Below are positions 21,850 through 38,266 of a stretch of DNA of 64,000 nucleotides, one piece after another. The notes under the pieces are model-generated. The model had not been told where the DNA came from, did not search any database, and saw only the letters and a list, made by a program, of their open reading frames with translations. The DNA is taken from NCBI GenBank assembly GCA_963792215.1, contig CAWBVL010000007.1, positions 855,710 through 919,709 on the forward strand, given 5' to 3'. Within the stretch, counting starts at the first letter, position 1. Every line of letters starts with the position of its first letter. The position numbers and the translations under genes were made by a program. The stretch is from an uncultured Actinomycetes bacterium (GTDB lineage: Bacteria; Actinomycetota; UBA4738; HRBIN12).

Positions 21850-22218
21850 ATGACCGTCCGCGTGTTGATCGTCGATGACCAGGAGCCGTTCCGGCAGGCC
21901 GCCCGCATGGTGGTCGAGTTGACGGACGGCTTCGAAGTCGTCGGCGAGGCCGAGACCGGCGAGGACTCGGTGACGATGGCGCAGGACCTGCAGCCCGACC
22001 TCGTGCTGATGGACGTGAACCTCCCGGGCATCAACGGGCTCGATGCGACGCGGCAGATCCTGGGCTCGTCGGACACGGTCGTGGTGCTGCTGCTGTCGAC
22101 CTACGAGGAAGCCGAGTACGCGCCGCGCGCCGCCGAGTGCGGCGCCTCCGCCTACATCCCCAAGTCGTCGTTCGGGCCGGACAGGCTCGAGGCCGCCTGG
22201 GAGACCGCCTCCGCCTGA
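21850..22218 (+). CDS. Stand-alone response-regulator receiver domain protein (NarL-like REC, no output domain)
   Basis: 'VRVLIVDDQEPFRQAARMVVE…DLVLMDVNLPGINGLDATRQIL…VVVLLLSTYEEAE'; the product ends after the receiver at 122 aa. Confidence 0.75.
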   Translation: MTVRVLIVDDQEPFRQAARMVVELTDGFEVVGEAETGEDSVTMAQDLQPDLVLMDVNLPGINGLDATRQILGSSDTVVVLLLSTYEEAEYAPRAAECGASAYIPKSSFGPDRLEAAWETASA

Positions 22219-24275
22219 TCGGACGCAGCGGGAACCGTGCCGATGACGGTGGTTCCTGCTCCGATGGCCGACTCGATCAGCAACGAACCACCGACCGCCT
22301 CGAGACGGTCGGCCATGCCTTGCAGTCCGGTCCCCCCGGCCACCGCGTCGGGGTCGAAGCCGCGGCCGTCGTCACGAACCATGAACCGCAACAGGCCGTC
22401 GGTCTGTTCGACGGATACGGACGCCGTCGAGGCTGAGGCGTACTTCGCGATGTTGTTCATCGCCTCGAGGGCGCAGAAGTAGACGGTGGATTCGATGTCG
22501 CGTGGGTAGCGACCGATCGACGCCGCGTCGACGCGGACCGGTGTGATCGCCTTCTGCGCCTGCGCCTCCAGCGCCGCTCGAAGCCCTTGATCGGCGAGCA
22601 GCGGCGGGTAGATCCCGCGTGCGAGGTTCCGGAGGTCGTCGAGCGCCGCGTTGGCGTCGTCTTGGAGCGCGGCGATCGCGTCGTGCGCCCGGACGGGGTC
22701 GCGCTCGATCATCGCGTCGGCCAGGCGCAGCTTCACGGCGAGCGCGACCAACTGCTGCTGGACGCCGTCGTGGATGTTGCGTTCCAGGCGCCGCCGCCCT
22801 TCATCCTGCGCCGCCACGAGCCGTTGCCGGGACGCGCGCAGCTCCTCGATCAGACGGACGTTCCGCAGCGCGAGGCCCGCCTGGTCGGCGAGGTCGCGGA
22901 TCAGCCGCTGGCGTCCGGGCCCGATCGGATCGTTGGCCGGCATCGTCACAGCGAGCGCCCCGAGCAGTTCGCCCCGGTCACGGACCGGTTCCGCCCAATC
23001 GGCCGGAAGCATCGGCAGCTCGTCGCCCTCGAGCGCCATCGCGTCGCCGATCGGACCGTCGCTCGGCCACGCGCCCGCGGGGCGGATCTCGCGCCCGACG
23101 CGGAGCCACACGACGGCGCTCGACGCACCCGTCGCGGTCGCGAGCAGTTGTGCCGTCCGGCCCACGACGTCGTCGGTCGCATACGTCTCGGACATGCGAC
23201 GCCCGAACGTCGTCAGCACCTCGTACGGCGTCGCGCGGCCGCCGTAGACGATCCGGTCCGCGATGCGTCCTGCGAGGCGGAGCGCCGGCCAGAACGCGAT
23301 GCCGATCGCCGCCGCCGCGATGACGGCGGCGCGCTGGCTCCGTCCGAACAGACCGCCGACGACGACCGCCGCCGCGACGAACGTGATCAGGAGGAGCCCG
23401 GCGACCGTCACATACAGCACCGTCTTCTTCACGACGAGGTCGAGGTCGTACAGGCGGTACTTCAGGAGCGCGATCGCGATGGAGCCGGGGATACCCACCG
23501 ACAGGCAGAGGAAGAACAGGACGAAGGCCAGGTCGTTCACCGGGCGGTTCTGGCCCGGTTGCAGGCCGATGCTCGTGATCAACACGAGGATCAGGAACAC
23601 GCCGGCGAGCGCGGCGGAGACCGAGATCCACCGGACCTGTTGCCGTTCCTCCTCGCCGGCCCGCCGATATCGGACCACAAGGGCGGCGACCGCCGCGATC
23701 GACTCGGCGGCGAGGAGGAGCCCGAAGATCCACGCGCTGGCGTTGAGGGACGACCGTAGTGCCTCGATGGCGGTGGGGTTCGGCACAGAGACGCCGTGCT
23801 TCAGCTCGATCGGAACCGGACGGAACATCGCGCCGAGGACGAGGCACACGAGCGTTGCCGCGGTCGCCCACACCAGCCAGCGCCACCGTTCCGACGGCGG
23901 ACGTCCCGTGGGGAAGAGCACGAGTACGATCGGGATCAGTCCGGCCATCACGAAGGTCCAGTTGTTGATCCACGCGGCCCAGTCTCCCGCGGGCAAAGAA
24001 CCAGGGTTCGTGACGAGGGAGTACGTCGCGTACTCCGCGGTGGCGCCGCCGAGCAGCAACCCGACCCCGACGAGCAGGAACAGCCAGCCGATCGGGTTGT
24101 GCGGGACGCGACTCGCCAGGATCGCGCCGGTGATCGCGTAGGTGACGATCGACAAGATGATCAGCAACGTGAACGGGTCGCCGGAGAAGGTGCCGTTCAG
24201 CGTGCCGAGCCAGAGCGCTTCGACGACGAGCGCGGCACCGACGGCGATCGCGCTCCAGACGCCGATCCGTCTCAC
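22152..24275 (-). CDS. Membrane sensor histidine kinase, HisKA_3 (NarL-partner) type, paralog K1
   Basis: N-terminal multi-TM domain with conserved 'NPIGW', 'FPTGRPPSERWRW', 'KYRLYDLDLVVKKT'; linker 'RIVYGGRATPYEVL'; H-box 'RRRLERNIHDGVQQQLVAL'; HATPase 'DDGRGFD…GTGLQGMADRL'. The 3' end overlaps the convergent receiver gene by 67 nt. Confidence 0.8.
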   Translation of the reverse strand: MRRIGVWSAIAVGAALVVEALWLGTLNGTFSGDPFTLLIILSIVTYAITGAILASRVPHNPIGWLFLLVGVGLLLGGATAEYATYSLVTNPGSLPAGDWAAWINNWTFVMAGLIPIVLVLFPTGRPPSERWRWLVWATAATLVCLVLGAMFRPVPIELKHGVSVPNPTAIEALRSSLNASAWIFGLLLAAESIAAVAALVVRYRRAGEEERQQVRWISVSAALAGVFLILVLITSIGLQPGQNRPVNDLAFVLFFLCLSVGIPGSIAIALLKYRLYDLDLVVKKTVLYVTVAGLLLITFVAAAVVVGGLFGRSQRAAVIAAAAIGIAFWPALRLAGRIADRIVYGGRATPYEVLTTFGRRMSETYATDDVVGRTAQLLATATGASSAVVWLRVGREIRPAGAWPSDGPIGDAMALEGDELPMLPADWAEPVRDRGELLGALAVTMPANDPIGPGRQRLIRDLADQAGLALRNVRLIEELRASRQRLVAAQDEGRRRLERNIHDGVQQQLVALAVKLRLADAMIERDPVRAHDAIAALQDDANAALDDLRNLARGIYPPLLADQGLRAALEAQAQKAITPVRVDAASIGRYPRDIESTVYFCALEAMNNIAKYASASTASVSVEQTDGLLRFMVRDDGRGFDPDAVAGGTGLQGMADRLEAVGGSLLIESAIGAGTTVIGTVPAASDQAEAVSQAASSLSGPNDDLGM

Positions 24276-26353
24276 GACGACGATCCTCCGGCGGCCATGA
24301 CGGGCACGGTACCCATCACGACGGTGCCGTTGCCCGGCTCACTCTTCACGGTGATCGAGCCGCCGACCGCATCGAGACGGTCGGCCATGCCCTGCAACCC
24401 GGTTCCGTAGGACGTCGTTGCCGTGTTGAAGCCGGCGCCGTCGTCGTGGACGGCGAAGCGAAGATGTTCGTCGTCTTGCGCGAGCTCGATCGTTGCCCGA
24501 TCCGCCTGCGCGTACTTCGCGACGTTGTTGAGCGCCTCGAGCGAGCAGAAGTAGATCGCCGACTCCACCGCCTGGTCGTACCGCCCGACCCCATCGGACG
24601 TCACGGTCGTGGGCACCGCCGCCTTACGCGCCTGCGCCTCGAGCGCCGCAGCCAGGCCTTGGTCGGCGAGCAGCGGGGGGTAGATCCCGCGCGCGAGGTC
24701 GCGGAGGTCCTCCAGTGCTTCGGTGGCGCGGCCCTGGAGCTGTTCGGCCATCGCCGGCACCTTGGACGGATCGCGATCGGCGGTCCTGCTCAGCAGTCCA
24801 AGCTGCACGTTGAGCGCGACCAGCTGCTGCTGCACGCCGTCATGCAGGTTGCGCTCGATCTTCCGCCGTTCATCGTCTTGTGCGGCAACCAGGCGTTGTC
24901 GCGACGCCCGGAGCTCCTCGATCAGCCGCACGTTCCGCAGGACGAGGCCGGCCTGTGCCGCGAGGTCGCCCATCAGCTTCTCCTTGGCGGGGTCGATCGG
25001 GTCTGAGGGTGGCATCGTGACGGAGAGCTCGCCGAGCTCCACACCCTGGTGCACGACGGCGACCGCGTGGTCCCGTCCGGGCGGTTCATCCGCCGGGAAC
25101 GTCGCGATCGGATGGAGGTCTGCGTCGACGCGGAGCCATACGGTCGCGGAAGACGCGCCGGTGCCTTTCGCCAGCACCTGCGCCATCCGAGGCAGGACGT
25201 CGTCGGCGTCGTACGCGTCGCCGACCCGTGAGGAGAAGTCCGCGAGGACCTCGTACGGCGTCGCGCGCTTCCCGTAGACGAGCCGGTCGGCGACCTTTCG
25301 TGCCCGTTCCCGCGCCGGTTGGAACGCGATGGCCAAGACCGCGGCGGCGACGAACGAGAGCGTCGCGTCGTGGTGTCCGACGAGCGCGCCGATGCCGCTG
25401 ACGACGGCCGCGTACACGACGGTGATGAACACCGCCAAGAGACCGAACACCACCGTCTTGCGGATCACGAGATCGAGGTCGTACAGGCGATACTTCACGA
25501 TCGCGATACCGCACGCGATGGGGATGCCACCCAACAGCGTGACGAACCAGACGGTGAAGACGATCGAGCCGACGAGCTGCCCGAGCGGTGTCTGGTCGCC
25601 GAGGAGCGCCGTGGTCACGATGCCGATCACGAGCTCGGCGGTGAACAGCATGCCGACGAACGCCAGCCATCGGATCTGCTGGCGGACCTCGCCCGTCGCG
25701 CCTCGGTAGCGGACGACGATGGCCGCGCACGCGGGGAACACCATGAGGAACGTGATGATGCCCGCGACCTCGGTCAGGACGTGGAGCAGACCGGCGAGCG
25801 CATCGACCCCGAGCGGGTTCATCACGATGACGTCGGTCAGATCGGCGAACGCCCCGGTCATCGGTCCGGGCGTCAGCGCGAAGGCGATCACGGTGATCGC
25901 CGGGGCGATGATCGTGACCCAGAGCACCGGTCGCCACCGAGGTGACGGCACCCGCCCGTCGGGGAAGAGCAGGAAGACGGGGATGAAGCTCGTGAGCACC
26001 AACACGATGAGCCACCGGTCGAACCACGCCGCGGCGTATCCGAACGGCAGCGAGCCGGGGTCCTTCTTCAGCGCCTGTGTCGCGTAGTCGCCGCAGAACA
26101 AGGCGAACGCTCCGACGAGCGGGATCGCCAGCAGGATCCATCCGATCGCGTTGCGTGCGTGCCGTATCACGATCGACCACCCGACGAACAGCAGCATCGC
26201 GGGGAAGAGGATCACGCCCCCGGCGTAGATCGTGTTGATCAACCACCCGGCTTGATCGGTCAGGCTTCCCGTCGAGAGTGCGAGCGTGAACCGGACGACG
26301 AGCAAGACCGTCGTCGCCACGACCATCGCCGTCGCGATCCTGCGGGCATTCAT
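24272..26353 (-). CDS. Membrane sensor histidine kinase, HisKA_3 type, paralog K2
   Basis: 'RNAIGW', 'FPDGRVPSPRWRP', 'KYRLYDLDLVIRKT', 'RLVYGKRATPYEVL', 'RRKIERNLHDGVQQQLVAL'. ATGA overlap with K1. Confidence 0.8.
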   Translation of the reverse strand: MNARRIATAMVVATTVLLVVRFTLALSTGSLTDQAGWLINTIYAGGVILFPAMLLFVGWSIVIRHARNAIGWILLAIPLVGAFALFCGDYATQALKKDPGSLPFGYAAAWFDRWLIVLVLTSFIPVFLLFPDGRVPSPRWRPVLWVTIIAPAITVIAFALTPGPMTGAFADLTDVIVMNPLGVDALAGLLHVLTEVAGIITFLMVFPACAAIVVRYRGATGEVRQQIRWLAFVGMLFTAELVIGIVTTALLGDQTPLGQLVGSIVFTVWFVTLLGGIPIACGIAIVKYRLYDLDLVIRKTVVFGLLAVFITVVYAAVVSGIGALVGHHDATLSFVAAAVLAIAFQPARERARKVADRLVYGKRATPYEVLADFSSRVGDAYDADDVLPRMAQVLAKGTGASSATVWLRVDADLHPIATFPADEPPGRDHAVAVVHQGVELGELSVTMPPSDPIDPAKEKLMGDLAAQAGLVLRNVRLIEELRASRQRLVAAQDDERRKIERNLHDGVQQQLVALNVQLGLLSRTADRDPSKVPAMAEQLQGRATEALEDLRDLARGIYPPLLADQGLAAALEAQARKAAVPTTVTSDGVGRYDQAVESAIYFCSLEALNNVAKYAQADRATIELAQDDEHLRFAVHDDGAGFNTATTSYGTGLQGMADRLDAVGGSITVKSEPGNGTVVMGTVPVMAAGGSSS

Positions 26354-28338
26354 CGGGCTGATCCCGCCATGCTCCGATCCGATGCCGGAACCGCGACCAT
26401 CACGGTGGTGCCGGATGCCCCGCTCGTGACGGCGAGCGAACCTTCGAGGGCGTCCACGCGATCCTGGATGATCTGCAGCCCCATGCCGCGCGGCGTCGTC
26501 CTCGCATCGAACCCCGGTCCTTCGTCGGTGATCTCGAAGGTCAAGACATCGCCGTCGAGCGACAGTCGCACCGTGCTCGGTGCGTTCGCGGCGTGACGCA
26601 GCACGTTCTGGATCGCCTGCAGACAGCAGAAGTAGACGCAGGCCTCGACGTCCGCATCGAACCTGCGGTTGGCGACCGAGGGATCGGCTTCGACCGTCGT
26701 CTGGGCGCCGACTTTGCGGATGTGTGCTTGCAGAGCGGGAACGATCCCTTGATCGGCCAGTAGCGGAGGGAACACCCCGCGCGCGAGGTCGCGAAGTCCT
26801 TCCAGGGTGTCGTTGGCGCGCTCGATCAGCGGGTCGAGCTCAGCCGGCTCGTTGACCGCGCGCACCGCGCGGCCGATCTCCAGGAGCTGCCGTTCGGGTC
26901 CCTCCTGGATGTCGCGCTGGAGCCCGCGACGCTGCGCGTCGCGGGCGGTCACCAAGCGCTCACGCGAGACCCGAAGGGCCGCCGCCTGCACGTCGAGCTC
27001 CCGCAACCGGACCCCGAGCTCTTCCGTGAGTCGGACGTTGTGCACGGCAAGGCCTGCCTGAGCGCCGAGGTCTTCGAGCAGCGCGCGTTCTGCCGGCGTG
27101 AGCGGGTCGTTCGCCGGCTTCGTCACGGTCAAGGTGGCGACGGGCTCGCCTTGGTGCACGATCGTCGTGGTCCACGGCTCCGCCGTTCGCCCGCCGGCGC
27201 TCGGTCCTTGCCAGCGCTCCACACGCTCGCCGCCGTCCGGAAGCGCGACGCGGATCGTCACTTCGGCGGCGCCCACGCCGGTGCCGGCCGCCTCGGCCAT
27301 CTGCGGAAGCACCTGTTCGGTCGAGACCGCGTCGGCGACCCGCTCTGAGAAGCCGGCCATCACCTCGTACGGGGTCGCGCGCTCGCCGAACACCAGCCGG
27401 TTGGCGAGCCGCCGTGCCCACACGCGCGCCGGCTGGAACAGCACGGCCGCGATCACGGTGGCAAGCAGGGACGAGGCGCCGGTGAGCGAACCGATCGCCG
27501 CGACCACTGCCACGTAGACCACCGTGATGAACGCCGCGAGCATTGCGAACACGAGCGTCTTCGACAAGACGAGGTCGATGTCGTACAGGCGGTAGCGCAG
27601 GATCGCGATGCCGGCCGCGATCGGGATCAGCGGGACCAAGAGCGCGAACGCCAGGTCGGGCCTCGGGAGTGCGAACACGCCGACCGCGACCCCCACGGCT
27701 GCGACCGCGCTCGCGGCGGTGAACCACTTCATCTGTGCGCGTTCGAGGCCGGCAGAGCGCCGGAACCGCACGACGAGCGAGACGGCGGACGCAAGGAAGA
27801 TCACCGCGTTCAGCAGACCGCCGAACGAGTTCAGCTCATCCGCGAACGATGGCGAGACGAGCTGCATCGGATGCGTCACCCCGGGGAAGTTCTGCGTGAA
27901 GTCCGACGTCACGCCGATGGCGGGCGCGATGAGGACGAACGCGATCGATCCGAGGGTGATCCACACGAGCGCGCGCCAGCGCGGCGTCAGCGGCGAGCCG
28001 GTCGGGAACAGTTGCAGGATCAGGTACACCGCTCCCGAGAGACCGATCGCCGATTGGAAGACCACTCCAACCCACCCCACGCCGGGCAGGTTCCGGGCGG
28101 TCGCTTGATGCGCGTACCCCAGGAGCGCGATGTCGACGGCGACCGACGCGCCGACGAACATCAGCAGCGGGCCGATCGCACGCCCGGCGCGCCGATACCA
28201 CAGCAGCGCGCCGACCGCGGTGGACGCGGCGACGAGCGGGATCCACATCAGGTCGCTCGGCACGTCTTCCAACATGGCACCAGCGACGAGTACCGCCAGC
28301 GACACGACCGGGATCGCCACGGCGAACGCGCGTCTCAT
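26350..28338 (-). CDS. Membrane sensor histidine kinase, HisKA_3 type, paralog K3
   Basis: 'FPTGSPLTPRWRA', 'RYRLYDIDLVLSKT', 'RLVFGERATPYEVM'. H-box diverged to 'RRGLQRDIQEGPERQLLEI' (Gln at the usual His position). ATGA overlap with K2. Confidence 0.75.
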   Translation of the reverse strand: MRRAFAVAIPVVSLAVLVAGAMLEDVPSDLMWIPLVAASTAVGALLWYRRAGRAIGPLLMFVGASVAVDIALLGYAHQATARNLPGVGWVGVVFQSAIGLSGAVYLILQLFPTGSPLTPRWRALVWITLGSIAFVLIAPAIGVTSDFTQNFPGVTHPMQLVSPSFADELNSFGGLLNAVIFLASAVSLVVRFRRSAGLERAQMKWFTAASAVAAVGVAVGVFALPRPDLAFALLVPLIPIAAGIAILRYRLYDIDLVLSKTLVFAMLAAFITVVYVAVVAAIGSLTGASSLLATVIAAVLFQPARVWARRLANRLVFGERATPYEVMAGFSERVADAVSTEQVLPQMAEAAGTGVGAAEVTIRVALPDGGERVERWQGPSAGGRTAEPWTTTIVHQGEPVATLTVTKPANDPLTPAERALLEDLGAQAGLAVHNVRLTEELGVRLRELDVQAAALRVSRERLVTARDAQRRGLQRDIQEGPERQLLEIGRAVRAVNEPAELDPLIERANDTLEGLRDLARGVFPPLLADQGIVPALQAHIRKVGAQTTVEADPSVANRRFDADVEACVYFCCLQAIQNVLRHAANAPSTVRLSLDGDVLTFEITDEGPGFDARTTPRGMGLQIIQDRVDALEGSLAVTSGASGTTVMVAVPASDRSMAGSAR

Positions 28339-30434
28339 GCGGTGCGCACCTCCGAGATGGGCACGCGCCCGCGCACGATCGTGCCCTTCCCGCGAGAGGA
28401 CTCGATCGTCGCGTCCCCGCCGAACACGGCGAGCCGGTCACGGATGCCGGCGAGGCCACTGCCTCCTCCGGTCGCGGCGGGATCGAACCCGACGCCGTCG
28501 TCGCGCACCGAGAAGCGCAGCGCTCCGTCGTCCGCCGCGATCACGATGGTGATCTCGTTCGCGTGCGCGTACTTGGCGGCGTTCTGCAACGCCTCGAGCG
28601 CGGCGAAGTACACGGCCGCTTCGATCTCGATGGGATAGCGGCCCGTCCCGTCCGCCTCCATCCGCACGGGCAGCCCGGAGCGCACGTACTGAGCCGCCAG
28701 CGCGGGGGCGATCCCTTGTTCCTCGAGCAACGGCGGGTAGATCCCGAGCGCAAGGGCCCGCAGCGTGTCGAGCGCGGCGTCGATCTCACCGCCGATCTCT
28801 TCGAGCATCGCGCGGCCGCGAGCAGGATCGGCGGCGATCGCCGTCTTGGCGAGCCGGAGCTTCACCGCAAGGGCGACCAGGTGCTGTTGCGCGCCGTCGT
28901 GGATGTTGCGCTCCAGCCGGCGGCGCTCCTCGTCCTGGGCGGTGACGATCCGCTGACGGGACGCGCGAAGCTCCGCGGCCTGGACCCCGATCTGATCGAG
29001 CCGCGCCTCCAGGTCGGCGGTCAGACCGGCGTTCGCGAGGATCAAGCCGGCCTGGTCGGCGAGTCGGTCGACCAACTCGGCCTCGCCGGGCGTGAGCGGT
29101 TCGCTCGCGCGCTTGTGGACCGCGATCGCGCCGAGCAGATCGCCGTGGTGGCGGACCGCGGCGACGCGATCGGCCTCGATCGGCATGACGTCATCGGCGA
29201 CCGGCAGGGATCGCCGTTCGTCCATATCGGGCCACGAGGCCGCCAACCGAAGCTCGTCGCCCACCCGGAGCCACACCTCCGCGCGGACGGCCGACGTTCC
29301 TTCCGCGATCACGCGCGCCACCCGCGGCAAGACGTCGTCACTCGCGTACGTTTCGCCGACGCGGTCGCCGAACCGAGCGAGCACCTCGTACGGCGTCGCA
29401 CGCGCACCGTACACGAGCCGGTTCGCCCAGCGGTTCGCACGGTCGCGCGCCGGCTGGAACGCGATCGCGACGACCGCGGTCGCGGCGATCCGGAGCGCCG
29501 GCGAATCGGCGAACGAACCGAGCCCGACGACGATCGCGACGTAGATCAGGCCGATGAACGCCGCGAGCACGCCGACCACGACGGTCTTGCGGATCACCAC
29601 GTCGATGTCGAAGAGGCGGTACTGCAGTATCGCGATGCCGATCGCGATCGGGATCAGCATCAACACGAACCCCTGGATGAAGTCCGCGATCCCGCCGGTG
29701 CCGTGGTTCAGCGGGAGCATGAACCACGCGAGGGCGACCGCGCCGGCGAACATCAACCACCGGATCTGCTCGCGTTCGACGCCTCGGGACCGGCGGTACC
29801 GGACCACGAGCGCCGCGACGCACGCCCCGACGGCGAGGAGCACGAAGAAGCTGACGAGGACGCGAGCGGCGTCGAACACCGGCGCGAACCGGTGCCACGT
29901 GTACGGGTTGATCGCCGGGTGGTTGTTGCCGTCGGTGTAGTCGTTCTGTTCGAACGCGAACGACATCGACCACAGCACCATGACGACCGCGACGCCCCAC
30001 GCCACGGGTCGCCACCGCCGGCTCGGGAGCCGTCCGTCGGGGAACAGCAGGAGTGGATACGTGAGGAGCAGGGTGAATATCGGGACCCACGCCCAGTTCC
30101 CGAGCCAGTTGAGGAACACCGCCCCCGGCGCGCCGGGGTGGTCGATCGTCGCCCACTGCACGTAGGTCCCGGCGAAGGAGAAGACCGCCGAGACGCCGAC
30201 CCACACCGCGAGGAAGATCCACCCGATCGGGTTCCTCGGTTCGCGCAACGCGATCGCGAGACCGACCACGCCATACGCGGTGAAGGCGAGACCCTCGGAG
30301 ATCGTCGACAACGGCGTCGGCAGATGATGGGCGAGCCCGAACGCGAGCGACCCGACGAACACCACGGTCGATGCCGTCCACAGCGACCAGGCCAATGCAC
30401 GCCGGGACGGCGCCGGGTGCGCGGCACCCGGCAT
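28335..30434 (-). CDS. Membrane sensor histidine kinase, HisKA_3 type, paralog K4
   Basis: 'RNPIGW', 'FPDGRLPSRRWRP', 'QYRLFDIDVVIRKT', 'RLVYGARATPYEVL', 'RRRLERNIHDGAQQHLVAL'. Start set at the Met of 'MPGAAHPAPSRRALAW' by paralog alignment; the ORF could extend to 30530. Confidence 0.75.
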   Translation of the reverse strand: MPGAAHPAPSRRALAWSLWTASTVVFVGSLAFGLAHHLPTPLSTISEGLAFTAYGVVGLAIALREPRNPIGWIFLAVWVGVSAVFSFAGTYVQWATIDHPGAPGAVFLNWLGNWAWVPIFTLLLTYPLLLFPDGRLPSRRWRPVAWGVAVVMVLWSMSFAFEQNDYTDGNNHPAINPYTWHRFAPVFDAARVLVSFFVLLAVGACVAALVVRYRRSRGVEREQIRWLMFAGAVALAWFMLPLNHGTGGIADFIQGFVLMLIPIAIGIAILQYRLFDIDVVIRKTVVVGVLAAFIGLIYVAIVVGLGSFADSPALRIAATAVVAIAFQPARDRANRWANRLVYGARATPYEVLARFGDRVGETYASDDVLPRVARVIAEGTSAVRAEVWLRVGDELRLAASWPDMDERRSLPVADDVMPIEADRVAAVRHHGDLLGAIAVHKRASEPLTPGEAELVDRLADQAGLILANAGLTADLEARLDQIGVQAAELRASRQRIVTAQDEERRRLERNIHDGAQQHLVALAVKLRLAKTAIAADPARGRAMLEEIGGEIDAALDTLRALALGIYPPLLEEQGIAPALAAQYVRSGLPVRMEADGTGRYPIEIEAAVYFAALEALQNAAKYAHANEITIVIAADDGALRFSVRDDGVGFDPAATGGGSGLAGIRDRLAVFGGDATIESSRGKGTIVRGRVPISEVRTA

Positions 30435-30614
30435 CGTGGTCGCGACGTGTTGCTGCATACGGGTCGATGCTCGCAGCGCGGGGCTCCGCCACCAAGGAGG
30501 GGGTCGCCACCGTTGCCGGCGTGCTGGCACTACCCGCCAACCGTGGTGTCCGCCGGGTCGTTCCCGCAGGTCACGCGGCCTACCGTTCAGTCAGTGATTG
30601 GAGGCGAACGAGAG

Positions 30615-31022
30615 ATGGCAACGATCGTGGTAGGAACCGACACCTCGGCGGCAGCCGATCTGGCGGTCGACGAGGCCGGGCGGCTCGCTCGGGCCAACGG
30701 CGCGGAGCTCGTGGTGCTCCTCGTGCGGCCCGACGGTGATCTTCGCGCGGTGGTCGACCCAGCCAAGGCAGCCGACCCGGAACGACACCTGACCCAACTG
30801 ATCCAACGGTTCCCCGATGTGTCCGTGAAGGCGCGAGTGGAGCACGGCGACGCGGCCGAGCGGATCTGTGAGGTCGCCGGCGAGCTCAAAGCCGAGACCA
30901 TCGTGGTCGGCAACCGCGGCACGAAGGGCTCGTGGTGGAAGGTGAAGGACAGCGTCCCGAACCTCGTGCTCCGGCACGCGCCGTGCAGCGTCTACATCGT
31001 CGACACCCGGCGGGCTCAGTGA
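30615..31022 (+). CDS. Universal stress protein (UspA family)
   Basis: 'MATIVVGTDTSAAADLAVDEAGRLA…ELVVLLV…ETIVVGNRGTKG…VPNLVLRHAPCSVYIV'. GGAGG RBS 12 nt upstream. Embedded at the 3' end of a long antisense ORF. Confidence 0.75.
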   Translation: MATIVVGTDTSAAADLAVDEAGRLARANGAELVVLLVRPDGDLRAVVDPAKAADPERHLTQLIQRFPDVSVKARVEHGDAAERICEVAGELKAETIVVGNRGTKGSWWKVKDSVPNLVLRHAPCSVYIVDTRRAQ

Positions 31023-31047: not shown

Positions 31048-31731
31048 CTACGCGAGCTCGGTCTCCCGCAGGAACGCGAGCACGGCCATCACGCGACGGT
31101 GCACGTCGGGTTCTTCGGTGAGACCGAGCTTGTGGAACATCGAGTTGATGTGCTTCTCGACCGCGCGGTCGGTGAGGAACAAGGCCTTCGCGATCGACGC
31201 GTTGTTCATCCCTTGCGCCATGAGCGACAGCACCTCGCGTTCGCGGTCGGTGAGCTGCGCAAGCGGGGAGTGGGCGAGCCGGTCCTTCGCGGCGACGAGC
31301 GACTCGACGACCTTGGGATCGAGCACGCTGCCACCGCGGGAAACCTCGTAGAGGGCGCGGACGACTTCGTCGAGGTCGGCGACCCGCTCTTTCAACAGGT
31401 ACCCGAGCCCGGCGGCGCCGTCCTTCAGCAGGTCGTAGACATAGGCCTCGTCGGCGTATTGGGACAGCACGACGACGCCGGTGTCGGGGTGCTCGGCGCG
31501 GATCTGCCGCGCGGCGCGGATCCCTTCGTCCGTGCCGGTGGGCGGCATGCGGATGTCGGTGAGGACGGCGTCCGGGGTCTGGTCGGCGACCGCGGCGAGC
31601 AGCTCGTCGTAGGAGGCGGCGGTGCCCACGATGGCGACGTCCTCGGCCTCGTGCAGCAGCGCCGCGGTGCCCTCCCGCACAAGGTAGTTATCCTCGGCGA
31701 ACACGATGCGCAGCACGGCCGCATCGTACAC
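31048..31731 (-). CDS. NarL/FixJ-family response regulator (REC plus LuxR-type HTH)
   Basis: 'LRIVFAEDNYLVREG…DAVLTDIRMPP…VVVLSQYADEAYV', HTH 'LTDREREVLSLMAQGMNNASIAKALFLTDRAVEKHINSMFHKLG'. Confidence 0.85.
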   Translation of the reverse strand: MYDAAVLRIVFAEDNYLVREGTAALLHEAEDVAIVGTAASYDELLAAVADQTPDAVLTDIRMPPTGTDEGIRAARQIRAEHPDTGVVVLSQYADEAYVYDLLKDGAAGLGYLLKERVADLDEVVRALYEVSRGGSVLDPKVVESLVAAKDRLAHSPLAQLTDREREVLSLMAQGMNNASIAKALFLTDRAVEKHINSMFHKLGLTEEPDVHRRVMAVLAFLRETELA

Positions 31732-31748
31732 GGGGAGCTACGGGCGAC

Positions 31749-33029
31749 ATGACGATCCGAGTGGTGCTCGGCGAGGACAATGTGCTGGTCCGCGAGGGTG
31801 TCCGCGCACTGCTCGACTCCTACGAGGATGTCGAGGTCGTCGGCGTCGCGTCCGACGCGCCGACCTTGATGGCGGCCGCGCATGAGCATGTTCCGGACGT
31901 CGTCGTCACCGATATCAAGATGCCGCCGTCGTTCCAGCTCGAGGGGATCGACTGCGCGCACGCGATCCGCGAGCAGCACCCGGACACCGGTGTGGTCGTC
32001 CTGTCGGCGCACGACGACGCCGAGTACGCCGTCGCGCTGCTGGGCGAAGGGCACAGCGGCCTTGCCTACCTCTTGAAGGACCGGATCGCGCAGGGCGACG
32101 AGCTCGTCCGCGCGATCCACGAGGTGCATGAGGGCGGCAGCGTCGTCGATCCGACGATCGCCGAGCGGCTCACCGGGAGCCAGCACGCCGACGACCAAGA
32201 CCGCAAGGTGCTGGACATGATGGCCCAGGGCCTCGGCTATCAGGAGATGGCGGCCGCGCTCGGCACGACGCAGGAGGCGGTCGACCGCCGCGTCACGGAT
32301 CTGTTCCGTCGGATGGCCGGTGGCAGCGAGGCCGGCAACGTGGACGATCTGAAGCGGCTGCACGCCGCCGTGGTGCAAAGCTCAGCGTCGTTCGAGACGC
32401 TTCGCTCGTACGTGCCGCAACAGGTGGTCGACGGACTCGCGGCAGACGCGAGCCTCGCCGAGCAGCGCGAGGTTGAGGTGACGGTGTTGTTCAGCGACAT
32501 CCGCGGCTTCTCGACGTTGTCGGAACGGCTCGCGGCGCGCGAGATCGCCGATGTGATCGGGCGGCATCTGCAGGCGATGGCCGAGGTCGTCGCCTCCCAC
32601 GGCGGCACGATCGACAAGTTCCAGGGCGACGCGGTGATGGCGGTGTTCGGCGCGCCGGTGCCGATGGACGATCACGCGCGCTGCGCGGTCGCGTGCGCGC
32701 TCGAGATGCAGTCGCGTCAGCGCGAGCTCAACGCCGAGGGTTGGGGGATCGAGAAGGTCGAGCGCCTCGACGTCGGGATCGGCCTGAACACCGGCATCGT
32801 GATGGCGGGCGCGATCGGCGGTGGCGGCCGGCTCGAGTACACGGTGATCGGCGACGCGGTCAACGTCGCGCAGCGCTTGCAGTCCGAGGCCGCCGGCGGA
32901 GAGATCGTCGCCGCAGCGAGCACGGTCCAGGCATGCGCCGACATCGAGGTCGAGTCGATCGGGGCCCGATCGGTGAAAGGCCGGGAAGAGCCCGTCGAGG
33001 TCTTCCGGGTCCTCATCGCGGACCGATGA
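31749..33029 (+). CDS. Response regulator with REC plus LuxR-type HTH fused to a C-terminal class III nucleotidyl cyclase (CHD) domain
   Basis: REC 'IRVVLGEDNVLVREG…DVVVTDIKMPP…VVVLSAHDD'; HTH 'DRKVLDMMAQGLGYQEMAAALGTTQEAVDRRV'; cyclase 'VTVLFSDIRGFSTLSE', 'IDKFQGDAVMAVFGAP', 'IGLNTGIVMAGAIGG', 'YTVIGDAVNVAQRLQS'. Confidence 0.8.
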   Translation: MTIRVVLGEDNVLVREGVRALLDSYEDVEVVGVASDAPTLMAAAHEHVPDVVVTDIKMPPSFQLEGIDCAHAIREQHPDTGVVVLSAHDDAEYAVALLGEGHSGLAYLLKDRIAQGDELVRAIHEVHEGGSVVDPTIAERLTGSQHADDQDRKVLDMMAQGLGYQEMAAALGTTQEAVDRRVTDLFRRMAGGSEAGNVDDLKRLHAAVVQSSASFETLRSYVPQQVVDGLAADASLAEQREVEVTVLFSDIRGFSTLSERLAAREIADVIGRHLQAMAEVVASHGGTIDKFQGDAVMAVFGAPVPMDDHARCAVACALEMQSRQRELNAEGWGIEKVERLDVGIGLNTGIVMAGAIGGGGRLEYTVIGDAVNVAQRLQSEAAGGEIVAAASTVQACADIEVESIGARSVKGREEPVEVFRVLIADR

Positions 33030-35113
33030 CCATCTCCGACCGAGGCCTCCGCGTCCTGACGTGGGTGGTCCTCGGCGTGATGTTGCTGACCGCGGTCGTG
33101 AGCCTGCTGATGGACAGCGTCAGCGGCTACAAGACCGACTGGGGCTTCGCGGTGATCATCCTTGCGTTCCCGTTCACCGGGTTCGTCGTGCTCCAGAAGC
33201 GACCGCGGAACACCCTCGGCTGGCTGATGCTCGGCATGGGCTTCATCGTGGCGATGCCCTTCCAGGACTACGCCGAGTACGCGCTCGTGAAGGGCCTGCC
33301 CGGTGCGGGCGTCGGCCTGGCGATGTCCGAGTGGTCCTGGGTCCCGTTCATCGGGATCTCCGGGTTCCTGTTGATGTTGTTCCCCGACGGGCATCTGCCG
33401 ACGCCGCGATGGCGGTGGTTCGCCTGGACGTGCGGGATCGGTCTCGTGTCGCTCGCGGCTGTGATCGCGTTCGCGCCGGGGAACTTCGCCGACCTGGGCC
33501 ATCCGGAGATCACGAACCCGCTGGGGTTCCATCCGCTCGATGTGCTCGGCGGCTGGATCTACGTGGTGACGATCTTCGCGCCGGCCGCGGTCGTCGGAGG
33601 AGCGGTCGCGATCATCCGGCGTCTCCGGCGTTCGACCGACCAGATCGAACGCCAGCAGCTGAAGTGGCTCGCGTGGGCGGCGGGCATCATCGCGGCGACG
33701 TACGTGTTCGCGTTCATCCCGGAGCTGGCCCTGGGAACGAGCACGTCCAACTGGAACGACTGGATCGCGCGGATCGCGGTGGGGTCATTCATCCTGATCC
33801 CGATCACGATCGGCATCGCGATCTTGCGCTATCGCCTGTACGACATCGACCTGGTGATCCGTAAGACCGTGGTCTTCGCGGTGCTCGCGGGGTTCATCGC
33901 GGTCGTGTATGTCGCGATCGTCGCCGGGATCAGCGTGGTCGTCGGGAACCTGTCCAGCACCGTCGCGTCGGCCATCGCCGCGGCGGTGGTCGCGCTCGCG
34001 ATCCAACCGGTGCGCCGGTGGGGCCAGCGCACCGCCGACCGCATCGTGTACGGCAAGCGCGCGACGCCGTACGAGGTGCTCACCGAGTTCGGCGAGAACC
34101 TCGCCGAGACCTACGGAGCCGACGACGTGCTCGCGCGCCTCGCCCGCGTGCTCGGTGAAGGCGTCGGCGCGCAGCGTGCGCGTGTCTGGCTCGGCGCAGA
34201 CGGGACGCGGCGCGTCGTCGCGAGTTGGCCTGACGGTGCCCCCGCATCCGGCGGCGACGATCTCGTCGAACCCGTTCGGCACCAGGGCCAGGTGCTCGGG
34301 GCTCTGTCCGTCGCGATGCCGCCGAACGATCCGATCGATGAGCCGCGGACCAAGCTGGTCGACGGGCTCGCTGCGCAGGCCGGCCTGGTGCTCCGCAATG
34401 TCGGCCTCCTCGAGGATCTGCGTGAGTCGCGGCGACGCTTGGTCGCCGCACAAGACCTCGAGCGGCGCAAGCTCGAGCGGAACATCCACGACGGCGCGCA
34501 GCAGCAGCTCGTCGCGCTGACCGTGAAGCTTCGATTGGCGCGTCAGGTCCTCGTGAAGGACCCGTCGCGCGTCGACGGCATGCTCGACGAGCTGGCCGGC
34601 GAGACGCAGCAGGCGCTCGAGGATCTCCGCGACCTGGCGCGCGGCATCTATCCACCGTTGCTGGCGGACCAGGGGCTCGGGGCGGCGCTGGAGGCCCAGG
34701 CGCGCCGGTCGGCGGTGCCGGTGACCGTCGAGTCCGACGCGATCGGCCGGTATGCACCGGAGGTGGAGGCAGCTGTCTACTTCTCGTGCCTCGAGGCCTT
34801 GCAGAACATCGCGAAGTACGCCGGCGCCACCGCCGCGACGATCCAGCTCACGGGTGCGCCGGGCCGCCTCGAGTTCCGGATCAACGACGACGGGGTCGGG
34901 TTCGACGCCGGCGCGACCTCGTACGGAACTGGGCTGCAGGGGATCGCGGACCGCCTGGCGGCGCTCGGCGGGGCGCTCGCCGTCGCCTCGACGCCCGGCA
35001 GCGGGACCGCGATCACCGGGTCCTTGCCCGCCCAGGAGGCCGATGCGAAGGTGAGCCCCGACGGTGCGCCGCCCGCCGTACCGGCGGCGCCGATGGGCGC
35101 TGCGCGCCCGTGA
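33026..35113 (+). CDS. Membrane sensor histidine kinase, HisKA_3 type, paralog K5
   Basis: ATGA overlap with the cyclase-RR stop. 'RNTLGW', 'FPDGHLPTPRWRW', 'RYRLYDIDLVIRKT', 'RIVYGKRATPYEVL', 'RRKLERNIHDGAQQQLVAL', 'DDGVGFD…GTGLQGIADRL'. Confidence 0.8.
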   Translation: MTISDRGLRVLTWVVLGVMLLTAVVSLLMDSVSGYKTDWGFAVIILAFPFTGFVVLQKRPRNTLGWLMLGMGFIVAMPFQDYAEYALVKGLPGAGVGLAMSEWSWVPFIGISGFLLMLFPDGHLPTPRWRWFAWTCGIGLVSLAAVIAFAPGNFADLGHPEITNPLGFHPLDVLGGWIYVVTIFAPAAVVGGAVAIIRRLRRSTDQIERQQLKWLAWAAGIIAATYVFAFIPELALGTSTSNWNDWIARIAVGSFILIPITIGIAILRYRLYDIDLVIRKTVVFAVLAGFIAVVYVAIVAGISVVVGNLSSTVASAIAAAVVALAIQPVRRWGQRTADRIVYGKRATPYEVLTEFGENLAETYGADDVLARLARVLGEGVGAQRARVWLGADGTRRVVASWPDGAPASGGDDLVEPVRHQGQVLGALSVAMPPNDPIDEPRTKLVDGLAAQAGLVLRNVGLLEDLRESRRRLVAAQDLERRKLERNIHDGAQQQLVALTVKLRLARQVLVKDPSRVDGMLDELAGETQQALEDLRDLARGIYPPLLADQGLGAALEAQARRSAVPVTVESDAIGRYAPEVEAAVYFSCLEALQNIAKYAGATAATIQLTGAPGRLEFRINDDGVGFDAGATSYGTGLQGIADRLAALGGALAVASTPGSGTAITGSLPAQEADAKVSPDGAPPAVPAAPMGAARP

Positions 35114-35127: not shown

Positions 35128-35928
35128 ATGGATCCGCAGACCGCGCCGACCGTTTCACGAGGCCGAGTGCTCGCGTACAGGATCATCGCGGGCATCTTCG
35201 GTGTGTTCGTGCTCATCTCGAACGTCGCGTTCTCGGTCCCGCAGTTCTTCAGCACGACCGACAAGATCCACTCCTTCCATGACCTCGCGTCGATGCCGGC
35301 GTTCCTCATCCTGCTCGGCTTCGCGTTGATCGTGATGATGCTGCGGCCCGACGACGTGGTCGCGCTCCGTGTCGGATGGGCGGTGGTCCTCGGCACACTG
35401 ATCGCGGGCATCATCGGCCACGACTACATCTCGGGGACGTACTACATCACGCTCGTCGTGATCGGCGTGCTGACCATCCTCGCGCCGGCACGAGCGGAGC
35501 TGCTCCGGTTCGGCTCGCCGAACGTCGCGATGCTCTGCTTGGCGGTCGTCGCGGCGATCCCCGCGATCGTGTTCGCGTGGGACAACGCGCGCATCATGTT
35601 GCAGATGGACCCGGCGATGGACATGAGCGGCCACTGGAAGTACCACCACTGGACCGGCGTTGCCGCGTCCGCGCTCGGCGTCGTCCTCGCGGCGATCGTC
35701 GTGTCTTTCCGCTCACCGGGCGACCGCATGTGGACCTGGGTGGTCGGGTTCTCGACGATGTTGTTCGGGCTCGCGGGCATCATCTTCAGCGACGCCGTCC
35801 GCTACCCGAGCTCGGTCGGAACGCTCTGGGGCGTCGGCGTCTTCTTCGTCGGACTCGTCTACATCGTTGTGGCCGAGGTCAGCGAGGGCGAGGAAGTGGA
35901 AGCCGGAGCGCAAGCGGTGGCGACATGA
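35128..35928 (+). CDS. Hypothetical polytopic membrane protein (6–7 TM)
   Basis: Starts 15 nt after the K5 stop and is preceded by GAGAGGGGA. Hydrophobic helices throughout ('IIAGIFGVFVLISNVAF', 'FLILLGFALIVMML', 'VVLGTLIAGIIG'). High-GC3 codon usage. Confidence 0.55.
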   Translation: MDPQTAPTVSRGRVLAYRIIAGIFGVFVLISNVAFSVPQFFSTTDKIHSFHDLASMPAFLILLGFALIVMMLRPDDVVALRVGWAVVLGTLIAGIIGHDYISGTYYITLVVIGVLTILAPARAELLRFGSPNVAMLCLAVVAAIPAIVFAWDNARIMLQMDPAMDMSGHWKYHHWTGVAASALGVVLAAIVVSFRSPGDRMWTWVVGFSTMLFGLAGIIFSDAVRYPSSVGTLWGVGVFFVGLVYIVVAEVSEGEEVEAGAQAVAT

Positions 35929-36155
35929 GCGCGCGCCCGGGCGCCGCCCGTCCCAAAGGCATACGCCGTCTCGAGCGGTGGTTCGTCGGCGTGATGATGG
36001 GCATCATCGCGTTCGCGCTCGAGAAGATCGTGCTGCGGTCCGTGAAGAAGAAGCATCCGGAGACCGGGCCAGAGGCGTCGACGCTCACGTCCAAGGGTGG
36101 CGACGTCGACCTGGAGGACCTGCGCCTCGGGAAAGGCTTCGGGAAGAGCTCCTAG
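35925..36155 (+). CDS. Small hypothetical single-TM protein (76 aa)
   Basis: ATGA overlap with the preceding gene. One TM ('WFVGVMMGIIAFAL'). GC3-rich codons. No homology recognised. Confidence 0.4.
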   Translation: MSARPGAARPKGIRRLERWFVGVMMGIIAFALEKIVLRSVKKKHPETGPEASTLTSKGGDVDLEDLRLGKGFGKSS

Positions 36156-38266
36156 AGGATCCGGTCGCGGCGGTCGCGCACCAGGTCCATCACCAAGCCG
36201 ATCACGAACAGGAGCCCGATAGCGCCGAGGGTCAGCGGCACCCATAGATCGACGCGGGTGGACGTCGCGGTGATCGCGGTGCCGAGCAGCGCCGCGGATG
36301 CGACGAGGCCGATCGCCAAGCGGCGGCCGGCGCGGCGCACCGTCCGCTCGAGCGAGGCCGCACGGAAGTTGACCTCGAGCTTCTGTCCCGGTCGCGCGCC
36401 GATCAGTCGCTCGACCGCCTCGATCACGCGGCCGGCGCGGACCCGCAGCCGCTGCACCTGATAGAAGATCGTCTTCGGGTCGAGCTTCGTGCCCATCCCG
36501 GTCATCACGCTTCGCATCAGGAACTTGCCCGCGACGTCGAACGGGTCAACCGTCGGATCGAGTTGCGAGGCGGCGAGCTGCATCTGCGCCAGCGCTTTGG
36601 CGGTCAGCGTGAGCGATGCGGGCAGCGGCACCCCGTAGCGGAGCGAGATCTCGGTCATCTCTTGCAGCACCGGGCCGAGCTGGATGTCCTGGATCGAGGC
36701 GCCCTGATACTTCGCGACCAGCGTGCCGATCTCCCCCTGGAACGCGTCGACGTCGAGGTCGCTTCGGTCGATCGCGCCGGCCATCATCAGCGTCACGTCG
36801 GTGAGGAAACCGACGTCGTCCTGCCAGAACGCCATCAGCAGCAACATCATCGACTCGCGAAGCTCCGAGCCGACCTCGCCGGCCATCCCGAGGTCGAGGA
36901 AGTACAGCTTGTTCTCCTCGGGCTGCCACATCAGGTTGCCGGGGTGCGGGTCGGCATGGAAGAAGCCGTCGACCATGACCTGCTTGTAGAAGGACTCGAG
37001 CAGCTGCTTCGCCGCCTCGGTGCGGATCGGCCCCTCGGGCGCGATCGTGATCGGGCCGCCGCCGACGTCGCCCATCACGAGCTGGCGCCCCGTCGAGTAG
37101 TCGCCGTAGATCGACGGCACGGCGAGGCGGTCGAAGGGCGCGATCACCTCGCGCATCCGCTCGACGTTGCGCGCTTCGTTGCGGAAGTCGAGCTCACGGT
37201 GCAGCGACGTCGACAGGTGTTCGAACACCGCCTTGAGGTCGATCACCTGTTTGAGGCCGGCGCGGTCGCCCGCCTTCTCCGCGAACACCTCGAGGAGCGC
37301 AAGGTCCTGCCCGATCAGCTCGCGCGCGTCGGGCCGCTGGACCTTGATCACGGCCTTCGCGCCGTTGGCCATCACCGCTCGGTGCACCTGCGCGATCGTG
37401 CCGGCGGCGAGTGGCTCCGGCTCGACATGATCGAACACGTCCTCCCACGGCACGCCGAGCTCTTGTTCCATCACCTGGACGACCTGTTCCTCCGACAGCG
37501 GCGGCACGTGGTCCTGCAGCTGCGCGAGCTCGGTGATGAACTCCGGCGGCAGCAGGTCGGGGCGCGTCGACAGGATCTGGCCGAGCTTGCAGAACGTCGG
37601 GCCGAGCTCCTCGAGCGCCTCGCGGAGGCGTTTGGCGCTTCTGGCCCGGCCCATCGTGCCCTCTTCGTCCGGGCGGCCGAACGCTTCACGCAGGCCGTGC
37701 TTGGCGAAGACCGTCGCGATCTTGGAGCCGCGCGCCATCAGGTGTGGCTGGGTCTCGGGCGGCGCGGCACCCGCCCGGAGCACCGTGCCGCCGGGCGCGG
37801 CGGGCATCGCACTCGTCACGCCATCGGTCGTGTTGACGATGATCACGGTGCAGCGAGCGTTGTGGCTGATCCTGTTCGGGACGTTGCCGAGCAGGAACTC
37901 CTTGCGTCCGGCCATCCCGGCGTTGCCGACCACCAGCACATCGATCGCCGCGTCATCGGCGGCGCCGACGATCGCCATCGCGGGGTCCTCGTCGACCACG
38001 ACGTGCGCCTTGCCGCGGACGCCGGCGAGCCGCTCGGCTTCTGCTTGGAGCGCCTCGGCCGCGGCCGCGGCTCGCGTGCGCTCGGCCGCCCCGAACTCGG
38101 TGTCCGATGGGCTGGTCGGGATGATGACCTGCACCAGATGGAGCTCGGCTCCGAACCGCTCGGCCAGGTCGTTGGCCCACCCGACGGCTCGCGAGGCGGT
38201 CTGGGACAGGTCGGTGCCGACCATGACCCGCTCGATGGGTCCCGCGAGACCAGGTTGTGCGTTCAC
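36152..38266 (-). CDS. Fusion: N-terminal universal-stress-protein domain plus UbiB/ABC1 (AarF) atypical kinase with C-terminal TM helices
   Basis: USP 'VMVGTDLSQTASRAV…VLVVGNAGMAGRKEFLLGNVPNRISHNARCTVIIV'; ABC1 'LGPTFCKLGQILSTRPDLLPPEF…LAAGTIAQVH…FFHADPHPGNLMW…LDLGMAGE'; C-terminal TM 'LGAIGLLFVIGLVMDL'. Confidence 0.8.
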   Translation of the reverse strand: MNAQPGLAGPIERVMVGTDLSQTASRAVGWANDLAERFGAELHLVQVIIPTSPSDTEFGAAERTRAAAAAEALQAEAERLAGVRGKAHVVVDEDPAMAIVGAADDAAIDVLVVGNAGMAGRKEFLLGNVPNRISHNARCTVIIVNTTDGVTSAMPAAPGGTVLRAGAAPPETQPHLMARGSKIATVFAKHGLREAFGRPDEEGTMGRARSAKRLREALEELGPTFCKLGQILSTRPDLLPPEFITELAQLQDHVPPLSEEQVVQVMEQELGVPWEDVFDHVEPEPLAAGTIAQVHRAVMANGAKAVIKVQRPDARELIGQDLALLEVFAEKAGDRAGLKQVIDLKAVFEHLSTSLHRELDFRNEARNVERMREVIAPFDRLAVPSIYGDYSTGRQLVMGDVGGGPITIAPEGPIRTEAAKQLLESFYKQVMVDGFFHADPHPGNLMWQPEENKLYFLDLGMAGEVGSELRESMMLLLMAFWQDDVGFLTDVTLMMAGAIDRSDLDVDAFQGEIGTLVAKYQGASIQDIQLGPVLQEMTEISLRYGVPLPASLTLTAKALAQMQLAASQLDPTVDPFDVAGKFLMRSVMTGMGTKLDPKTIFYQVQRLRVRAGRVIEAVERLIGARPGQKLEVNFRAASLERTVRRAGRRLAIGLVASAALLGTAITATSTRVDLWVPLTLGAIGLLFVIGLVMDLVRDRRDRIL

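Follow-up and report, generated by a model that had tools for sequence, protein, structure and literature searches.

The stretch of DNA analysed here (hereafter the window) comprises 64,000 nucleotides of contig CAWBVL010000007.1 from an uncultured Actinomycetes bacterium (GenBank assembly GCA_963792215.1), has a G+C content of about 70%, and carries a gene that joins a response regulator to a class III nucleotidyl cyclase in a single open reading frame (ORF). We refer to this response regulator-adenylyl cyclase fusion as RR-AC. From the N- to the C-terminus, the predicted protein consists of a receiver (REC), a diverged LuxR-type helix-turn-helix (HTH), a helical linker and a cyclase homology domain (CHD), and the gene lies between a divergently oriented regulator of the NarL type and a gene for a histidine kinase (Table 1).

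Table 1. Positions in the window of the RR-AC gene, its parts and the adjoining genes
Feature	Position	Strand	Evidence
RR-AC gene, predicted response regulator-adenylyl cyclase fusion (REC, HTH relic, helical linker, class III cyclase)	31749..33029	+	ORF, Pfam, relatives
REC domain, residues 3-120	31755..32108	+	Pfam, AF2, Foldseek
Helix alpha6 and REC-HTH linker, residues 121-148	32109..32192	+	Alignment with NarL-type paralogue, VraR, NarL, ChrA
Diverged LuxR/GerE-type HTH (apparent HTH relic), helices 149-159, 164-171, 175-191	32193..32321	+	Sub-threshold GerE, AF2
Gly/Ser/Ala-rich hinge and alpha10-like helix (KRLHAAVV), residues 192-215	32322..32393	+	Alignment, AF2
Pre-cyclase helical handle (cyclase-transducer-element-like, ...SYVPQQVVDGL...), residues 216-238	32394..32462	+	Profile alignment
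Class III (IIIb-type) CHD, residues 239-421	32463..33011	+	Pfam, PDB profile matches, Foldseek
Overlap of RR-AC stop and K5 start, ATGA	33026..33029	+	Sequence 'ccgATGAcc'
K5, polytopic membrane HisKA_3 histidine kinase, presumed cognate	33026..35113	+	Pfam, H-box, transmembrane-like segments
Divergent intergenic spacer, 17 bp, with GGGAG Shine-Dalgarno of RR-AC	31732..31748	.	Sequence
Divergent paralogue, NarL/LuxR-type response regulator (REC and GerE)	31048..31731	-	Pfam, BLASTP
Tandem kinases K1-K4, paralogues of K5	22152..30530	-	Pfam, identities, H-box alignment

Receiver and cyclase domains of RR-AC

The ORF starts with ATG and encodes 426 amino acids, with G+C contents of 0.75/0.42/0.90 at the three codon positions, as is typical of coding DNA. 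An earlier note on this DNA had described one ORF with a receiver, an HTH and a cyclase; this domain order is confirmed by Pfam and by BLASTP comparison with the neighbouring NarL-type paralogue, and the motifs quoted at the time are all found in place in the protein (FSDIRGF at residue 248, IDKFQGD at 288, YTVIGD at 364, AVNVAQR at 370 and DRKVLDMMAQGLGYQEMAAALGTTQEAVDRRV at 151-182). That the fusion stems from an assembly or frameshift artefact can be dismissed, given that the architecture of about 425 amino acids recurs in more than 120 protein clusters and 80 genome loci.

Full-length relatives with 74-95% identity number more than 120, and 80 genome loci were retrieved out of 196 stretches confirmed by tblastn; residue conservation and charge were compared between 81 fusion and 72 paralogue sequences from this same set of retrieved loci. 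RR-AC passes no NCBIfam model and gives only sub-threshold matches to the NarL family (MctR, 111 bits; MadR, 89.5 bits; cut-off 300 each), so that the family is left without a curated name. Members carry the label 'class 3 adenylate cyclase/DNA-binding NarL/FixJ family response regulator' from the automatic JGI pipeline.

The N-terminal part of RR-AC matches Response_reg over residues 6-110 with 62.1 bits (Pfam cut-off 30.2). Its AlphaFold2 (AF2) model displays the (beta-alpha)5 fold, with values of the predicted local distance difference test (pLDDT) mostly of 80-94, and Foldseek aligns it with REC domains of the NarL family at a template modelling (TM) score of 0.85. The receiver set is complete, including the acidic pair E9/D10, the phospho-acceptor D55 and residues S86, Y107 and K110, all of them invariant in 81/81 orthologues. 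In addition, no part of the protein is under stronger constraint than the REC, for which the ratio of nonsynonymous to synonymous substitution rates (dN/dS) is 0.055 and the pairwise identity 0.89. Judged from its residues and predicted fold, this domain is a competent receiver of the NarL type.

The C-terminal part matches Guanylate_cyc (PF00211) over residues 238-415 with 96.6 bits (cut-off 21.9). When the family profile was compared with PDB sequences, the top matches were Synechocystis Cya2 (2w01, 6e-43), along with the phytochrome-Cya2 chimera 6fht, followed by CyaB of Pseudomonas aeruginosa (3r5g, 2e-40) and CyaC of Spirulina (1wc0, 1e-29), and the AF2 cyclase model superposes on Cya2, CyaB and CyaC with TM scores of 0.81-0.88 (Foldseek). 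Six canonical catalytic residues align with catalytic positions of these enzymes, namely the metal-binding D250 and D294, the specificity residues K290 and T365, and the transition-state residues N372 and R376, the last two within 'VNxAxR'; D250, D294, N372 and R376 face identical residues in CyaB (3r5g) and Cya2. All six, together with R361, are invariant in 81/81 orthologues, and the pair of metal-binding aspartates proposed in the earlier note is therefore intact.

The same applies to the lysine that had been suggested to specify adenine. The stretch around K290 reads 'GGTIDKFQGD' in RR-AC, as compared to 'GGTIDKFMGD' in the engineered adenylate-specific Cya2 of 6fht and 'GGTIDEFMGD' in the native guanylyl cyclase Cya2 (2w01). 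The second specificity residue, T365, aligns with the Thr of 'DYTIIG' in CyaB, and a Thr at this position, in place of Asp, is a signature of class IIIb that CyaB and CyaC have in common. Taken together, the alignments to Cya2 and CyaB yield a Lys/Thr pair of the adenylyl type, with the essential catalytic residues all present. This pair indicates that RR-AC belongs to the class IIIb adenylyl cyclases, and we conclude that the domain is predicted to be a catalytically competent adenylyl cyclase of the homodimer type, the output of which would most likely be the synthesis of cyclic AMP (cAMP).

The neighbouring NarL-type regulator and the diverged HTH

The divergent neighbour of RR-AC is a canonical combination of Response_reg (61.8 bits) and GerE (54.1 bits). 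Residues 3-198 of RR-AC, which include the receiver, the alpha6 linker and the HTH, are 45% identical to this regulator (BLASTP, E 1e-55), so that RR-AC can be described as a duplicated NarL-type regulator plus a cyclase; from this comparison, it evidently arose by duplication of the adjacent gene and gain of a cyclase at the C-terminus. The paralogue lies divergently upstream in 75/75 loci with upstream sequence, at a spacing between the two starts of 18-60 bp in these related genomes. In the window, 17 bp separate the GTG of the paralogue (minus strand, 31731) from the ATG of RR-AC (31749), and the spacer contains a 'gtacacgggg(a/g)g' element conserved across loci. The Shine-Dalgarno sequence of RR-AC (GGGAG) adjoins the start codon of the paralogue and, as a consequence, each of the divergent promoters must sit within the other gene. 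A scan around the divergent spacer for sigma-70-like promoters and terminators found none, and no excess of synonymous-site conservation, as embedded operators or promoters would leave, was found in the first 40 codons of both divergent genes.

Scanned alone, the HTH of RR-AC reaches 16.5 bits against GerE (E 0.006), below the cut-off of 23.5, and no GerE match at E<=0.01 is found in the Pfam scan of the whole protein, in which Response_reg and Guanylate_cyc both exceed their cut-offs. GerE attains E<=0.01 in only two of 46 RR-AC relatives (best 0.0039) and stays below threshold in the other 44. Nevertheless, homology to the LuxR-type HTH, as asserted in the earlier note, is supported by several alignments, even though the GerE threshold is not reached. 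The BLASTP alignment with the GerE-positive paralogue passes through the HTH, phmmer alignments with ChrA, NarL and VraR extend to residues 189-190, and Foldseek, run with residues 1-215, returns full-length VraR, LiaR, spr1814, DesR, ChrA, RcsB and NarL at the top, with E values down to 1e-11. The helices of the module are predicted by AF2 with pLDDT of 82-90 in two independent runs.

While the HTH is the C-terminal and sole output in NarL/FixJ regulators, that of RR-AC is internal, being followed by a 230-residue linker plus cyclase. It is also more acidic, with a mean net charge of -2.1 compared to +0.4 in the paralogue (81 vs 72 sequences). The recognition helix of the paralogue, 'LTxRAVEKHINSxFHKL', shows little or no variation at any position (72 sequences), and it is at these positions that RR-AC has changed: R189 is replaced by E176, K193 by R/G/S, H194 by R/Q, N196 by T, S197 by E/D/M/A, H200 by R/G/Q/K and K201 by R/G/S. 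In the distant members P0129 and P0128 (42-46% identity), GerE gives no signal at all and the recognition helices, 'PEAVDAAIDQLF' and 'PEAVADAVEELF', are acidic.

The distribution of constraint along the two proteins points in the same direction. In RR-AC, dN/dS amounts to 0.084 in the HTH, 0.119 in the alpha10-like helix and pre-cyclase handle and 0.100 in the cyclase, whereas the paralogue shows 0.111 in the REC, 0.051 in the HTH and 0.019 in the alpha10 region. Constraint is thus inverted, the HTH and alpha10 lying below the REC in the paralogue and above it in RR-AC, and amino-acid identities agree with this pattern.

Since its dN/dS of about 0.08 is like that of the cyclase, the HTH of RR-AC would appear to be functional in some way. 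By the measure of these substitution rates and of the invariance of V178, D179, T183 and F186 in 81 sequences, it is not decaying, being instead a folded module under purifying selection, and it looks like a conserved but diverged relic for which DNA binding is unlikely. A regulatory or structural module is the best reading of its role. The earlier note had held that the regulator also binds DNA, a claim that finds no support in this form, in view of the sub-threshold scores in the window protein and in 44/46 relatives, the acidic character, the replacement of residues invariant in the paralogue and the inverted constraint. The alternative raised there, a degenerate linker, goes too far in the opposite direction in view of the cyclase-like dN/dS. 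A single regulator that both binds DNA and makes a cyclic nucleotide is the less likely reading.

K5, signal transmission and alternative explanations

As the earlier note had pointed out, the TGA of RR-AC overlaps the ATG of K5 ('ccgATGAcc' at 33026-33029), an arrangement compatible with translational coupling. K5 comprises a GAF-like region, HisKA_3, the H-box ERNIHDGAQQ and HATPase_c. A GTG at 32693 was rejected as its start, as it would impose a 330-nt overlap with RR-AC and the alignments of homologues begin with the Met1 encoded by the ATG. NarL-type receivers usually have HisKA_3 kinases as their partners, and a K5-like kinase of this type is encoded directly downstream, on the same strand, in 64 of the 70 loci that extend far enough in this direction. 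That K5 is the fifth paralogue of a set, as the earlier note had it, is borne out by K1-K4, which are arranged in tandem and share 35-47% identity among themselves and with K5.

Within this array, K3 (26350..28338, minus strand) has no HisKA_3 match in Pfam and retains HATPase_c. Its aligned H-box reads 'QRDIQEGPERQL', compared to 'ERNIHDG(A/V)QQ' in K1, K2, K4 and K5; K3 thus has Gln where the phospho-acceptor His would be expected and is probably a pseudo-kinase. A single-domain receiver protein of 122 amino acids (21850..22218, plus strand; Response_reg, 86.9 bits) is convergent to K1 and overlaps its 3' end, and may act as a phosphate sink or an extra partner of the kinase array.

Between the HTH and the cyclase, the hinge that precedes the alpha10-like helix varies from 10 to 14 residues in the RR-AC family, compared to a fixed length of 9 in the paralogue. 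L204, H205, A207 and V208 of the alpha10-like helix are invariant, and the AF2 helix at 198-213 is predicted at pLDDT below 50. Profile alignment to Cya2's own N-terminal handle, as contained in 6fht, begins at residue 216 of RR-AC, and residues 216-238 are probably a segment similar to the cyclase-transducer-element of class III cyclases.

The findings presented above allow us to propose that RR-AC is probably a phosphorylation-activated adenylyl cyclase, derived from a duplicated NarL-type regulator, in which the HTH has been kept as a module that does not read DNA. In this model, a HisKA_3 kinase would phosphorylate D55 of the receiver, the likeliest donor being K5, which shares the operon and has an overlapping start. 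Phosphorylation would alter the dimerisation or domain-docking state of the receiver, and this change would be relayed through the HTH relic, the flexible Gly-rich hinge, the alpha10-like helix and the pre-cyclase handle. Two class IIIb cyclase domains could then assemble into a head-to-tail homodimer with two ATP-specific active sites, at which cAMP would be made. In unphosphorylated NarL, the C-terminal domain is docked on the receiver. In a similar way, the HTH relic may be a docking or inhibitory element that faces the receiver, and/or may take part in a dimeric transmission path; by this analogy, an autoinhibitory clamp is a good candidate for its role, although a conjectural one. It is also conceivable, if rather doubtful, that the relic allows RR-AC to pair with the paralogue on the divergent control region with its 17-bp spacing, by contacts of the receiver and/or the alpha10-like helix, so that a single phosphorylation event would couple promoter occupancy to cAMP production, or that it is the first instance of a closed-to-open HTH switch of the NarL style being reused as a cyclase clamp.

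Several observations weigh against the proposed model. The HTH retains its hydrophobic core together with conservative swaps (E192 to D179, K193 to R180 in 57/81, I to V, F to F), and its dN/dS is as low as that of the cyclase; some DNA binding may therefore be left, perhaps in altered form, or the protein may bind as one half of a heterodimer with the paralogue. Moreover, the paralogue itself carries Glu (E192) where NarL has Lys188. The contact residues of E. coli NarL (K188 to D179) were accordingly discarded as a sole argument for lost DNA binding, since the GerE-positive paralogue is also acidic there and this comparison alone is not diagnostic; our argument rests on comparisons between paralogue and fusion. 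In addition, the downstream kinase is missing in six of the 70 loci, and AF2 confidence is low at residues 192-223, with an unreliable interdomain geometry (predicted TM score 0.50), which makes the signal transmission path a conjecture.

Among the alternatives, the one that deserves most attention, although we regard it as improbable overall, is a bifunctional regulator in which the HTH binds DNA, either by itself or paired with the paralogue in a heterodimer, for instance at the shared divergent control region, and phosphorylation switches both transcription and cAMP synthesis. The confident fold of the HTH and its homology to a working LuxR-type HTH would be expected under this explanation, as would its purifying selection (dN/dS 0.084), the four invariant residues mentioned above and the fact that both paralogues are always adjacent and divergent across a spacer of 18-60 bp. 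Precedents can also be named: VieA of Vibrio cholerae (REC-EAL-HTH) is a regulator that unites an enzyme with an HTH. Cyclase and LuxR-type domains are likewise combined in proteins of the Rv0386 type (PMC3466318). Nonetheless, a DNA-binding HTH is difficult to reconcile with GerE scores below threshold in 44/46 members, a net negative charge with R189 of the paralogue reversed to E176, and exposed recognition-helix positions that vary (R/G/S, R/Q, E/D/M/A, R/G/Q/K) where those of the paralogue are invariant. Furthermore, the region of the alpha10 dimerisation helix, under about six-fold weaker constraint than its counterpart in the paralogue, stands behind a variable Gly-rich hinge, the recognition helices of distant members are acidic, and neither a conserved synonymous-site footprint nor a promoter-like element was seen around the spacer.

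The sign of regulation is unreadable from sequence, and the unphosphorylated protein might thus be a constitutively active cyclase dimer that is shut off by phosphorylation or by the balance of kinase and phosphatase activities, or the receiver might work independently of phosphorylation. Intact catalytic residues make basal activity plausible, and four extra paralogous kinases, together with the His-less K3, suggest a complex phosphate flux. We consider these possibilities unlikely, however, as the invariant D55 and the full phospho-switch set argue against phosphorylation independence, and CyaC, a cyanobacterial receiver-cyclase, is reportedly activated by phosphotransfer to its receiver (Kasahara & Ohmori 1999, cited in PMC1183210). 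Much more improbable still is that the domain acts as a guanylyl or promiscuous nucleotidyl cyclase, or as a catalytically silent dimerisation module: although the closest solved relative, Cya2, is natively guanylyl, at the position of its Glu RR-AC carries Lys290, like the adenylate-specific variant engineered from Cya2, Thr365 is as in CyaB and CyaC, and all six catalytic residues are invariant (81/81).

Related systems, distribution and genomic neighbourhood

A close parallel to RR-AC is provided by CyaC, in which a receiver is likewise N-terminal to a class IIIb cyclase domain with a Lys/Thr pair, under presumed control of cAMP by phosphorylation, and the catalytic domain of which is among the top structural matches of the RR-AC cyclase. 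Unlike RR-AC, which is a stand-alone NarL-type regulator, CyaC is a large hybrid protein that includes a kinase core and GAF domains of its own; RR-AC, in turn, has a relic LuxR-type HTH between receiver and cyclase, and its kinase is a separate HisKA_3 membrane protein. With the NarL/FixJ regulators (NarL, VraR/LiaR, DesR, DosR and the paralogue) RR-AC shares the receiver subtype, the alpha6 linker, the HTH topology and the pairing with HisKA_3 kinases, but differs in that its HTH is sub-threshold, acidic and internal, its alpha10 is relaxed and a cyclase comes after it.

Response regulators with second-messenger enzymes as outputs are common, as exemplified by WspR and PleD (REC-GGDEF), RpfG (REC-HD-GYP) and VieA. 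These proteins resemble RR-AC in converting a two-component input into a nucleotide second messenger, and VieA in joining an enzyme to an HTH; yet they operate with c-di-GMP and another enzyme family, while in RR-AC a vestigial-looking HTH is located between receiver and enzyme. Within Actinomycetota, Rv0386, Rv1358 and Rv2488c likewise unite a LuxR-type HTH with a class III cyclase in one polypeptide; they belong to the 'CHD+LuxR' subfamily of cyclase-ATPase-LuxR proteins, which was restricted to Mycobacterium in the census (PMC3466318). Their cyclase is N-terminal, followed by an AAA/NB-ARC ATPase and TPR, with the HTH at the C-terminus and without a receiver (PMC3466318). The Pfam scan of RR-AC detected no ATPase domain, and with its order REC-HTH-CHD the Rv0386 architecture is not matched; we find no evidence for a common origin of the two.

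The earlier note had called the output combination of RR-AC unusual, but it has more precedent than this implied. Taken separately, receiver-controlled cyclases and the fusion of a cyclase to a LuxR-type HTH are already known (PMC3466318). For the three-domain order, no description of a REC-LuxR-HTH-cyclase protein was found in the literature searched. What is new is the order REC-(relic LuxR HTH)-CHD, its evident birth from a neighbouring NarL-type gene, and a fixed tie to that gene and to the kinase array in one uncultured actinobacterial lineage. Should the proposed model hold, RR-AC would be a clean natural example of a transcription-factor response regulator rewired into a second-messenger enzyme, with ancestral and derived states directly comparable because the parent gene still adjoins RR-AC in every genome examined. 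In a soil lineage of Actinomycetota that is abundant yet uncultured, it would also tie cAMP signalling to a large, conserved module whose five paralogous kinases are polytopic and of the HisKA_3 type, one being His-less. As a compact, soluble and presumably phosphorylation-gated adenylyl cyclase, the family might provide a part for synthetic biology, and the retained HTH poses a testable question on how receiver signals reach class III cyclase dimers.

The 80 loci, from species-representative genomes, all belong to metagenome-assembled genomes (MAGs) of uncultured Actinomycetota, many of them from soil surveys. In a library clustered at 50% identity, at least four full-length representatives of the RR-AC architecture are present among the best 150 listed, with identities to RR-AC of 67% (P0121), 48% (P0127), 46% (P0129) and 42% (P0128) among the matches listed. 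Given the few clustered representatives, the occurrence in MAGs of uncultured Actinomycetota only and the fixed neighbours, the family is narrow, lineage-restricted and syntenic, and belongs to uncultured soil Actinomycetota. P0128 (561 amino acids) has a second receiver C-terminal to the cyclase, in addition to the core of REC, relic HTH and cyclase, and the family therefore seems to explore further regulatory add-ons.

In the wider neighbourhood, a stand-alone protein of 140 amino acids with a cNMP_binding domain (53.2 bits) is encoded at 53147..53569 (plus strand), between lysS and clpC-like genes, roughly 20 kb away from the cyclase. This protein is a possible cAMP receptor downstream of RR-AC, the link being one of co-occurrence in the window only. 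Between the NarL-type regulator and K4, the other strand carries a universal stress protein (USP) gene (30615..31022, plus strand). K5 is followed by the gene for an unannotated membrane protein of 266 amino acids (35128..35928), conserved downstream in many loci, and just past it by one for a 704-residue fusion of USP and an ABC1 atypical kinase (36152..38266, minus strand). Finally, positions 15..12588 are rich in signalling and ion-transport genes, among them three pairs of HisKA kinases and OmpR-type regulators, two of these kinases being KdpD-like with DUF4118, as well as genes for two TrkA-type proteins and two unusually long AA_permease_2 proteins (778 and 826 amino acids).

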